64,000 nucleotides of DNA from an uncultured Nitrososphaerota archaeon. GTDB lineage: Archaea > Thermoproteota > Nitrososphaeria > Conexivisphaerales > DTJL01. Positions 59,578-61,780 of the stretch are shown in pieces (within the stretch, counting starts at the first letter, position 1; each line of letters opens with the position of its first letter). The stretch covers positions 461,927-525,926 of the forward strand of contig CAWJIE010000005.1 of the NCBI GenBank assembly GCA_963842885.1. The letters run 5' to 3'. Both the position numbers and the translations under genes were made by a program. The notes beneath the pieces are model-generated. The model worked only from the letters and a program-made list of their open reading frames with translations. It had not been told where the DNA came from and made no database searches.

Positions 59578-59850
59578 TCATTTCCTCGAGGGCTTGTAGT
59601 ATGCCGGAGGCTGCAGGCCCGCGCAGTGGACCACTCCCTTCACGCGCCTGAGGAAGGAAGGGCAGGTGAAGCAAACGAGGAAGGTGACTTCGTCGTTGAC
59701 CATCGGACACTTGACGGCTTCCTTCTTCATCCGACCCATCATCTTGCCGCTGACAACGCCCTTGAGCTGAGACGTCACTTCCTTGGGCACCTTGGAGGGC
59801 TTCTCGACGGCGAAGATGGGGACCTCGTACTTGGTTGGGGGAACCGACAA
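59578..59850 (-). CDS. Small Cys-rich putative Zn-binding protein
   Basis: KKEAVKCP...CFTC..F.RR..G...C. Confidence 0.65.
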   Translation of the reverse strand: MSVPPTKYEVPIFAVEKPSKVPKEVTSQLKGVVSGKMMGRMKKEAVKCPMVNDEVTFLVCFTCPSFLRRVKGVVHCAGLQPPAYYKPSRK

Positions 59851-60009: not shown

Positions 60010-60544
60010 TTGGGGCATGTGCTCAACGCGTTCATCCGGTTCAAGGTGTCCCCATCGATCCTCGGATACCTGCTAGATCGGACTGGGGATAATCCTCGCG
60101 GTAATCCTACCGTCGACGCTGGTGGGGCTTCCCGGGCCTGGAAGCTACATCCTCGCCAACTACCAGCTCATCCCCTACGCGCCGCTAGTGCCGCTCATGG
60201 GGGTCGCTATCGGCGTTGCGACGGTGTGGTCGGTCAACCGGTCCTCCAGAACTCGAGGATTCTGGGTCATGCTGTCCTCGGGCTTCATCCTGACGCTCGC
60301 GTTCTTCTGGATCTCCGTCGCTAAGCCCGGCACCTACGTCCATGGGCTGGGCTTCCCGCTGAGCTGGATCCTCTTCCTCGCCCTCCCCCTCAGGCCGGTC
60401 CAAGTGCTAGGGACATCTGTCATAGCCTTCCTCCTTGACTGGACGCTCTGGACGCTCTTCATAGACAGCCTGAGCTTACGTCTCAGAGCAGCGCAGGCTC
60501 CGACGGAGGTTCTATCTCGCCGGAAAACCCTCCCGAAATCTTGA
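60010..60544 (+). CDS. Membrane protein, probably frameshifted (~60060)
   Basis: Hydrophobic segments in the 60122-60544 frame, which stays open upstream; the ATG at 60018 is in another frame. Confidence 0.5.
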
Positions 60545-60618
60545 CAAGTCAAGGAGATTTGATTAAATGTATTACAGTTTGGGTGCGATACGTTAAAGTA
60601 AGGCGCGGGAGTAACAAT

Positions 60619-60950
60619 GATTCGTCCGCGCGCTATCTGGTGGCGACGTGACACAGGTCGTTCAAGAGCGCCTGTGCGCAGTCCGGCTTCCTGATCAGAA
60701 GTCGGAGGATGTATCCGGCTCGCAAGGCGACCCGTATCATGGGACCACCGGCCCTGGCGCGAAAGCCCGAAAGGCTCTAGGATGGACGGAGAAAGGCGGA
60801 AGTGTGCGCCGCGGCGGGGCTCTGCCCCAAAGAGTCGCATGCTGAAGTCTGGAACCGTTCAAACGAAAGCCTCGACGGTGATCGAACTTGGGGTTTTGCG
60901 CGCGGGCCGGAACAGTCCCCAGCGTAACGCGTCAGCTTGCTGGACGATCA
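60619..60950 (+). ncRNA. Putative ~330-nt structured non-coding RNA, family unassigned
   Basis: Nested helices, GNRA loops (GCGAAAGC, CCGAAAGG), 5'/3' pairing, TTAAAG box at ~60593; no credible ORF. Confidence 0.6.
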
Positions 60951-61171
60951 GAAGGCGGCAGGCTCAACCCAGGTCGATTTCAAATTCGCCGGCCTTAGAG
61001 CCCAAGCCCGGCCCGTTGTTCAGAACCTTGACCGACTACCCCGTCTTCTTGTGAAGCCCCACCTCAAGGATACCACCTCTAAGTGGACAGTTCACTGTGT
61101 CGCCTTGCAGATTCCGCAGTGCCGCAGCGTACATTCGATGTCCCTGTCCATCCTTGCCTTTGGCACGCGGA

Positions 61172-61780
61172 CTAAACAGTAAGCGGGAGATCGATGAGCT
61201 GCACGGAACCGGCGTCCTCCATATCCTTCAGCAATCTCCTCAGGGTCGAGATGTCTAGGCCCTGATATGAGCTCCCTCCGAAGGCCCCAAGCCTGAATAT
61301 CGCCCTGCCCAGGATCGACAGGGCTACGGTTTCTTCACCCTTCTGAAAGTGAACGTAAGCAGCAGCCAGGAGTATGAGACCCTGGAGCACCTCCCTCTCT
61401 GGCACCCCCTTCGGGAGCTTCCTCCACTGGAACTCCAGCTCTTCATGGACCTCCCAGAACCTCTCCTCCGAGTACATGGACTTGGCCAGCTCGACACTCT
61501 GCTCGACCGTCCGCTCGCCCTCGATGACGCTCAGATTCCTTACGCTCAGCACCGGCCCGAGTGCCGAGTTGACCGTGCGCACGTCCAATTCGAGATCGTC
61601 AGACGAGTCCTCATAGAGATCGAATTCGACTGCCACTCTGGAGACCCTGAAGTTCTCATGGCGCGGAAGCCGACTCCCTGACAGACTCCTCTTCATCTCG
61701 GCGATGGAGGCCTGAGATGCCTTCCGGCCTTCGTTCTTCACGCGGACGAGATACCTCAATGCGTCATTCACGTGTCCCAT
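61172..61780 (-). CDS. DUF309-domain protein
   Basis: ERFWEVHEELEFQW, LQGLILLAAAYVH. Confidence 0.85.
   Translation of the reverse strand: MGHVNDALRYLVRVKNEGRKASQASIAEMKRSLSGSRLPRHENFRVSRVAVEFDLYEDSSDDLELDVRTVNSALGPVLSVRNLSVIEGERTVEQSVELAKSMYSEERFWEVHEELEFQWRKLPKGVPEREVLQGLILLAAAYVHFQKGEETVALSILGRAIFRLGAFGGSSYQGLDISTLRRLLKDMEDAGSVQLIDLPLTV

Follow-up and report, generated by a model that had tools for sequence, protein, structure and literature searches.

Does the stretch of DNA above encode an RNA of its own, and if so, what kind of RNA is it? The window, that is, the whole 64,000-nucleotide (nt) stretch analyzed here (G000:C5:461927-525926), belongs to the genome of an uncultured Nitrososphaerota archaeon of the order Conexivisphaerales (G000; 2.03 Mb, 87% complete). 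An earlier note on this DNA had proposed a highly structured RNA at 60590..60975, to be read as a novel non-coding RNA (ncRNA), a ribozyme or a very divergent RNase P RNA. On the basis of sequence comparisons, we predict that the gap at 60624-60907 (+) is a single-copy gene of a highly structured ncRNA of ~284-285 nt. The proposal of a novel ncRNA was supported by the lack of any Rfam match, compensatory changes across genera, a dedicated promoter box and the lack of a coding signal, and we consider it very probable that this is a real, new, trans-acting structured RNA of archaea, a judgment that leaves its mechanism aside.

The RNA candidate of the earlier note proved to be real and all strings quoted for it were found where they had been placed, whereas its ends had to be moved. 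In the alignment of sequences from the genus of the source organism (g1), the AT-rich box at 60559-60572 comes first; next, an invariant stretch with GTTAAAGTAAGGC at its end (60592-60604) and a variable spacer of 18 nt lead to a conserved core, which runs from GUCCGCGCGC (60624) to GCGCGCGGGCCGGA (60912; CCGGA). Conservation then ceases and returns downstream of the RNA at the 3' end of the convergent gene. Because conservation in the genus is bounded in this way, the ends of the RNA were set at ~60624-60907 rather than 60590-60975. Its relatives in other lineages are 293-340 nt long. The preference for the plus strand was borne out by folding, both for the core (z of -3.4 on the plus strand vs -2.4 on the minus strand) and for 60590-60975 (-2.52 vs -0.79), and by the covariance model R1, which scored 339 bits on the plus strand vs 21 bits on the minus strand. 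Folding z values of the RNA were -3.4 in G000, -4.7 in G006, -3.2 in G007 and -15.9 in G012, and in the low-G+C genomes G007 and G006 the RNA forms a G+C-rich island. Searches with R1 and a second covariance model, R2, found a single copy per genome. The region also appears to carry no coding signal: variable columns of the core are spread over the three codon positions (30/37/34), indels of 1-2 nt occur inside it in the g1 alignment, and no open reading frame (ORF) common to the genera could be identified over the RNA (best E-value of 0.003 in a tiny database).

A common layout is predicted in all lineages, in which a helix, P1, joins the ends of the RNA and closes a junction with two long arms, A and B (Table 1). 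The complementarity of P1 is kept with five different sequences across lineages. The pairing of GCGCGC (60628) with 60898-60903 proposed previously is real and conserved, being part of the 10-base-pair (bp) P1 helix, whereas two other pairings were not retained: the 3' partner of GATTCGTCC (60619), GGACGATC (60942), falls in sequence that lacks conservation even among members of the genus, and the CCAGC/GCTGG hairpin lies outside the conserved core. Circularization through a bulge-helix-bulge at P1 was considered and rejected, P1 being without bulges. The sequence of G012 folds into exactly the shape of P1 and two arms, with one structure making up ~20% of the predicted ensemble. In this RNA (L067:261-600, minus strand), P1 has 15-16 bp and the helix closing arm A has 21 bp; the predicted folding energy is -238.8 kcal/mol over a 351-nt stretch (L067:255-605; z of -18.5). 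Such striking predicted stability makes it an attractive target for structure determination.

Arm A is ~105-115 nt long and starts 0-5 nt after P1. Its closing helix P2 (CTGGTGG/CCACCGG in the earlier note) is conserved; a single compensatory change occurs, in G004, and two cells are mismatched. (U)GGU-initiated closing helices equivalent to P2 follow P1 in G005, G006, G007 and G012. For the hairpin P5, proposed previously as TCCGGCTTC paired with GAAGTCGGA, three pairs have changed on both sides within the genus; when G005 was added, 6 of 9 pairs had done so. P5 has a length of 8-11 bp across lineages, and its loop is self-complementary in every lineage of the host family (f1): UGAUCA, GAUC in the genus variant L041, CUAG/ACUAGU in G005 and GCUAGC in G006 and G007. 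Among 395 hairpin calls in 26 control loci, palindromes of 6 nt in the loop were found only in the RNA of G006 and in one other hairpin. The mini-hairpin P6 has equivalents at the same place in G005 (GGG-UUAA-CCC) and G006 (GGG-CUGG-CCC), one pair being changed on both sides. A Shine-Dalgarno-like GGAGG was discarded, as it is merely the purine strand of P5 in G006 and G007. The CACAGG/CCTGTG hairpin of the earlier note has some comparative support; however, a rival long-range helix, 60656-62/60726-32, competes with it, in which three pairs have changed on both sides and three cells are mismatched. This helix and the local pairing 60652-57/60671-76 are mutually exclusive, and both could form in G005. 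The two pairings could represent a conformational switch or an alignment artefact.

Arm B adjoins arm A directly and appears as a long, irregular rod in which short G+C-rich helices alternate with symmetric, purine-rich internal loops. The loops of the window are AGAA/GGAA, GGAA/UGAA and CCGCGGC/AAAGAGU, and in G012 GA/AA and AA/AA recur at regular spacing. GGGGC/GCCCC, as noted before, is conserved and forms the tip of the arm, whereas ACCGT/ACGGT competes with the covarying helix GGACGG (60784-89)/CCGTTC (60855-60), and we could not confirm the proposed three-way junction with its two GAAA loops. The distal 81 nt of the arm were aligned in nine sequences without gaps and without fitting to a model (alignment A7). 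Under a structure drawn by hand from the same nine sequences that were scored, 94.3% of the cells were paired and 14 of 24 arm-B pairs had changed on both sides, vs 6.0±1.7 in shuffled controls (0/500) and 2-6 in slid controls. When four sequences were aligned by fitting to the model, changes on both sides were seen in 27 of 90 pairs (10.7±2.5 shuffled, 0/500; 1-9 slid). Among four sequences of the genus, 14 of 101 predicted pairs were compensatory. In the homologs collected, a check suggested in the earlier note, compensatory changes exceeded both kinds of controls, and covariation provides strong support for a structured RNA as predicted here. R2, the arm model, scored 92.9-95.8 bits in the genus, 65.7 in G007, 59.1 in G005 and 17.9 in G006.

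The most conserved motif of the RNA is a 7x7 internal loop beneath the tip hairpin of arm B. In this loop, C31-G51 is invariant in all eight distinct rows, and Y29-R53 is CG in seven of them and UA in one. Read by eye, G and A seem to be juxtaposed across the loop. Archaeal kink-turn (K-turn) elements, bound by L7Ae, likewise have internal loops with juxtaposed G and A beside G+C helices. The K-turn consensus consists of a 3-nt bulge followed by tandem sheared G.A/A.G pairs. The loop studied here does not fit this consensus because it is symmetric, without a 3-nt bulge, and because position 2b is not conserved (A, U or C by lineage); an L7Ae-binding K-turn was therefore rejected.

Table 1 Features of the RNA locus and its surroundings (positions in the window)
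Feature	Position	Strand	Description
90-amino-acid (aa) Cys4 protein gene	59578..59850	-	Basic; four invariant Cys, C-x11-C-x2-C-x12-C
140-aa ORF	60122..60544	+	Hydrophobic, without family; between 90-aa gene and RNA
Upstream AT-rich box	60559..60572	+	TTGATTAAATGTAT; conserved in genus; just after stop of 140-aa ORF
TATA-like box	60592..60601	+	GTTAAAGTAA; TTAAAG begins 31 nt before P1; invariant in 4/4 genus sequences
RNA core	60624..60907	+	~284 nt, first to last base of P1; conserved block in g1 alignments
P1, 5' strand	60624..60633	+	GUCCGCGCGC, pairs with 60898-60907; invariant in genus
Arm A	60637..60751	+	Closed by P2, CUGGUGG 60637-43/CCACCGG 60745-51
P5 hairpin	60682..60706	+	UCCGGCUUC-CUGAUCA-GAAGUCGGA; palindromic loop UGAUCA 60692-60697
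P6 mini-hairpin	60707..60716	+	GGA-UGUA-UCC, directly after P5; 3 bp
Arm B, distal part	60782..60862	+	60784-89/60855-60, 60794-97/60847-50, 60802-08/60836-42, tip 60816-20/60824-28
Most conserved motif	60809..60835	+	7x7 internal loop 5' YYRCGGM/5' RAAGNRY under GGGGY-NNN-RYCYC tip hairpin
P1, 3' strand	60898..60907	+	GCGCGCGGGC; 10-bp helix with 60624-60633
V4R-domain gene remnant	60964..61334	-	Split over frames, in-frame stop, internal deletion
P1 in G005			5' CCGUGCGCC/3' GGCGCACGG
P1 in G007			5' CGUUGCGCCC/3' GGGCGCAA(A)CG
P1 in G006			5' AGCUUGUGCACC/3' GGUGCACAGGCU
P1 in G012			5' GCUUGCGCGCCCGCUG/3' UAGCGGGCGCGCAAGC

As tested by Rfam searches, the predicted RNA belongs to no described family. 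No match to Rfam 15 was found in the whole window at the gathering score, in 60400-61200 even at E<=10, or in the RNA loci of four relatives at E<=1; in particular, none of the covariance models for OLE, ROOL, GOLLD, raiA, HgcC and the ribozyme families of Rfam 15 gave a match. This result of the cmscan check is in keeping with a novel ncRNA. A literature search revealed no description of the RNA, including in what could be consulted of one bioRxiv report (10.64898/2026.10.21.760802), namely, the report without its supplements, and no paper was found on Conexivisphaerales together with non-coding RNA.

A very divergent RNase P RNA, as the earlier note had suggested, or a signal recognition particle (SRP) RNA would agree with the size of ~300 nt, the helix that joins the ends, the box at about -30, the single copy and a GAGGA string. 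However, both canonical RNAs occur elsewhere in the same genome, on contig C4: RNaseP_arch (RF00373) at G000:C4:255918-256212 (189.9 bits, model 1-288) and Archaea_SRP (RF01857) at G000:C4:217011-217324 (127.1 bits, model 1-317). Because the genome carries a full-length canonical RNase P RNA, the divergent RNase P reading falls. In addition, neither model matched the candidate at E<=10 in 60400-61200, nor did RNaseP-T (RF02357); the latter was found nowhere in the genome in a search that was weak and likewise negative in control genomes. In RNase P RNA, the CR-I consensus GAGGAAAGUCC pairs with a 3' partner to form the P4 pseudoknot. In the candidate, the corresponding GAGGAUGUAUCC comprises the end of P5 followed by a local hairpin of 3 bp; no conserved partner was found for it, and its sequence is not kept in G005, G006, G007 and G012. 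Similarly, the RNase P-like string GAGGATGTATCC consists of the 3' end of P5 and a small local hairpin, and the GAGGA string, located in P5/P6, differs in every lineage. The absence of a P4 partner and of the SRP helix-8 motif agrees with the earlier observation. Taken at its best, the probability of an RNase P or SRP RNA is negligible.

A self-cleaving or otherwise catalytic RNA of a new ribozyme class would accord with the complex conserved architecture, the invariant internal-loop motif and the presence in the genus of several loops of the GNRA type (GAAA at 60763, 60771 and 60865). On the other hand, no ribozyme family of Rfam was matched, neither a conserved pseudoknot nor a candidate active site could be identified, and the RNA is a single-copy element in housekeeping synteny rather than part of a repeat, an intron or a mobile element, so that catalysis appears quite unlikely.

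With regard to expression, the RNA would be transcribed from its own archaeal TATA-type promoter. The earlier note had placed a TATA-like box at 60559-60572; this box exists and is conserved in the genus, whereas the box shared across genera is that at 60592-60601, whose sequence GTTAAAGTAA is the predicted TATA box. TATA-like boxes are located 27-32 nt before P1 in G007 (CTTAAAGTAAAC) and G006 (GGTTAAAGTTAT). In G012 the box is TTATAA, 29-33 nt upstream of P1, and in G005 a weaker TCTATTAGG lies at about -29. The RNase P and SRP RNA genes of the genome have TTTAAAT/TTTAATTA ~32-36 nt before the model start. Given the usual archaeal spacing between TATA box and start, we infer a transcription start at or within ~2 nt of P1. 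In G012, a run of six T residues lies 4-8 nt after P1. A scan for bacterial-type promoters and terminators, which is not relevant to archaea, gave none of either. None of the sequencing runs recorded as RNA carries the stretch. Among three further runs, two small ones that are merely guessed to be RNA each contained one contig (60643-60904 and 60652-60805), and the third contained none. These runs gave no coverage of the flanks (60100-60642 and 60905-61500), whereas the DNA run X1 covers everything. As contigs inside the core that give no transcript ends, they are at most a weak hint of a transcript.

The position of the RNA after an ORF on the same strand (60122-60544) might suggest a 3' untranslated region (UTR) or cis-regulatory element of this 140-aa gene, and a conserved DNA element or degraded gene could be imagined as well, as a spurious 168-aa ORF on the minus strand overlaps the RNA and a real gene remnant lies just downstream. 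However, in a comparison limited to G002, G003 and G005, the 140-aa gene has matches in the first two, which belong to the same genus, and none in G005. In genera where the RNA has other neighbors, its own box is still found at a constant distance from P1, and compensatory changes together with frame-breaking indels fit an RNA rather than a protein or a DNA site. We regard this explanation as very improbable.

Homologs of the RNA were found in all four genera of the host family f1, in 7 of its 9 genomes, counting G000; the two in which it was missed are G001 and G008, with completeness of 59% and 85%, respectively. G012, from a second family, probably carries a further copy, as judged from its sequence. 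All carriers are uncultured archaea of peat and wetland metagenomes. By blastn, the region was detected at 79-83% identity in three of the four remaining genomes of the genus, and none of 36 further relatives gave a match. R1 gave full-length matches at 320.9-339.1 bits in G000, G002, G003 and G004. In G005, from a sister genus, the match was full length but weak (20.7 bits), and P1 has a compensatory change there; over the order (36 genomes), R1 gave no match outside f1. Tracing the neighboring 90-aa gene through the order exposed the arm-B motif in G007, and the full copy in G006 was found by synteny together with a bump in G+C content, G006 being also the top match of R2 among 24 loci (17.9 bits). 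A motif scan of public genome contigs retrieved 20 loci, 4 of them archaeal and all from genomes already known, and a scan of metagenome contigs retrieved 22, of which 6 were real and 3 were new variants of the genus (L034, L041 and L051). When up to one mismatch was allowed, matches in 401 genomes of the class were confined to f1; this negative is weak, since G006 and G012, both true members, escape the motif. Neither R1, the arm model nor searches for the closure and box detected the RNA in any of the 8 genomes of family f3 or the 17 of family f4, and closure-plus-box and minimum-free-energy-residual scans around the 90-aa gene revealed nothing convincing there. Pairwise identity of the RNA between lineages is as low as 43-51%; therefore, homology between genera rests on architecture, motif, promoter box and position.

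The RNA lies in conserved housekeeping synteny, and the same chromosomal neighborhood is kept in four genera. In all five genera in which the RNA was found, the 90-aa Cys4 protein gene lies no farther than ~1 kb from it, through changes of orientation: the two are divergent with one gene between them in g1, convergent in G005, G006 and G007, and divergent and ~110 nt apart in G012. As neighbors and orientation differ between genera, the RNA would act in trans. Guide or accessory RNAs of mobile and defense elements (omega RNA, bridge RNA, retron or group II intron fragment) would resemble the candidate in size and elaborate fold. Nevertheless, the RNA is present in one copy per genome, has no Rfam match and stays in the same neighborhood in four genera, and no transposase, reverse transcriptase or nuclease gene was found among the neighbors scanned, which makes such an origin extremely improbable.

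The persistent linkage could also mean that the RNA is the RNA moiety of a ribonucleoprotein with the 90-aa protein, which is basic and has four invariant Cys and whose gene accompanies the RNA in g1, G005, G006, G007 and G012. However, the protein occurs in 34 of the 36 genomes of the order and the RNA was not found beside it in f3 and f4, and other genes of the neighborhood (PGK, HIT and MBL) are shared too. Since the protein also occurs where the RNA was not found, the linkage is treated as a lead only. No Pfam, NCBIfam or PDB sequence match was found for the protein, and its Atlas matches are hypothetical Nitrososphaerota proteins only; its AlphaFold model (pLDDT 85.4) was matched neither by Foldseek at E<=0.001 nor by VIA at Z>=2. 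Both a ribonucleoprotein of this composition and, more generally, a role of the protein as candidate partner of the RNA appear unlikely.

How, then, might the trans-acting structured RNA proposed here work? Our guess is that it would serve as a scaffold, the purine-rich loops of arm B being sites of protein binding or tertiary contacts. Two copies might pair through the palindromic P5 loop to form a kissing-loop dimer, a possibility that the sequence allows us to raise only tentatively. Kissing-loop dimers such as that of the human immunodeficiency virus 1 (HIV-1) dimerization initiation site have a stable hairpin with a palindrome of 4-6 nt in the apical loop. In a similar manner, the P5 palindrome changes between lineages and yet stays self-complementary. 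The context is, however, entirely different from that in HIV-1, the dimer would be inferred from sequence, and G012 departs from the pattern. Bacterial 'ornate' RNAs (OLE, ROOL, GOLLD and raiA-motif RNA) resemble the candidate as stand-alone RNAs of the 300-nt class with an elaborate conserved structure, no known function and a narrow range, whereas its host is archaeal and it has no Rfam match to any of them. It is also far smaller than ROOL, GOLLD and OLE. Homo-oligomers in which kissing loops provide part of the contacts have been reported for OLE, ROOL and GOLLD (bioRxiv 10.1101/2024.12.08.627333); for the candidate RNA, the conserved self-complementary loop hints at self-pairing, and oligomerization would be conjecture. 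It is rather doubtful that the RNA is a first archaeal counterpart of these RNAs, that is, a three-armed RNA of 285-340 nt forming a homodimer or higher assembly through the P5 palindrome, with arm B as a purine-loop rod for a protein, possibly the Cys4 protein.

Apart from ribosomal RNA, RNase P RNA and SRP RNA, very few large structured RNAs are known from archaea. A new RNA of ~300 nt with a three-part architecture, its own promoter box and covariation would be a candidate for a new cellular RNA function, in a poorly studied and mostly uncultured lineage of Nitrososphaeria, and its self-complementary P5 loop offers a simple testable hypothesis. The distribution is narrow, no cultured host is among the carriers found and the gene linkage is the sole functional clue.

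It should be noted that several points weigh against the picture drawn above. The gene and its expression are predicted from sequence; no oligo-T terminator follows P1 in the window, and the RNA ends are likewise derived from sequence. The sequences are few (seven distinct ones from the genus and one each from four other lineages), the RNA of G005 by itself folds no better than shuffles (z of -1.1), and parts of the fold are unsettled because sequence diversity is small, namely, the base of arm B, the two GAAA hairpins and the choice between local and long-range pairing in arm A. G012 is counted as a probable member on the grounds of architecture, motif, box and position; its arm scores only 11.9 bits (E-value of 0.88). 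With respect to self-pairing, its P5-like loop, ACCC, is not palindromic, with CUAG found in the adjacent mini-hairpin instead; in L041, a single change shortens the palindrome of the P5 loop without compensation; and loop palindromes of 4 nt arise often by chance, having been seen in 65 of 395 hairpin calls. As for the 90-aa protein, structure searches with its AlphaFold model revealed no recognizable RNA-binding fold, and the linkage may be plain synteny, since the protein is present in 34 of 36 genomes of the order and the RNA was found in only two of four families.

Other features of the locus include the 140-aa ORF, which has matches in G002 and G003 of the same genus and is probably an insertion into an ancestral divergent pair. 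No transfer RNA gene was found within the 64-kb window. Downstream of the RNA, an intact homolog of the V4R-domain remnant, of 150 aa, is present in G002 (L004:1908-2360, minus strand) and resembles the C-terminal half of MsvR (NCBIfam E-value of 1.2e-17, below the cut-off).

Several candidates from the searches were examined and rejected. Motif matches in G008, G023 and G031 lie in coding-looking DNA, the 24.6-bit match of R2 at G000:C2 falls within an ORF of 506 aa, and an R2 match in L075 (G009) lies inside the 90-aa gene, on a contig that stops 26 nt past the gene. The G017 candidate (L068) has a z of only -1.6 and lacks a box. In the G023 candidate (L073:1105-1420), the 5' 46 nt are a multi-copy repeat and nothing is conserved over the full length in its genus; a second piece of this locus is duplicated 4 kb away. 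The ~46-nt repeat itself (L073:1075-1120 in G023, and in G017, G011 and G024) is 80-89% identical among ~8-9 copies per genome; it occurs in several genomes from two families of the order and may be a small mobile or repeat element. Finally, three g11 genomes (L069, L070 and L071: 2571-2865, plus strand) share a conserved 8-bp closure, GAGCCGAC/GTCGGCTC, with the two strands ~295 nt apart.

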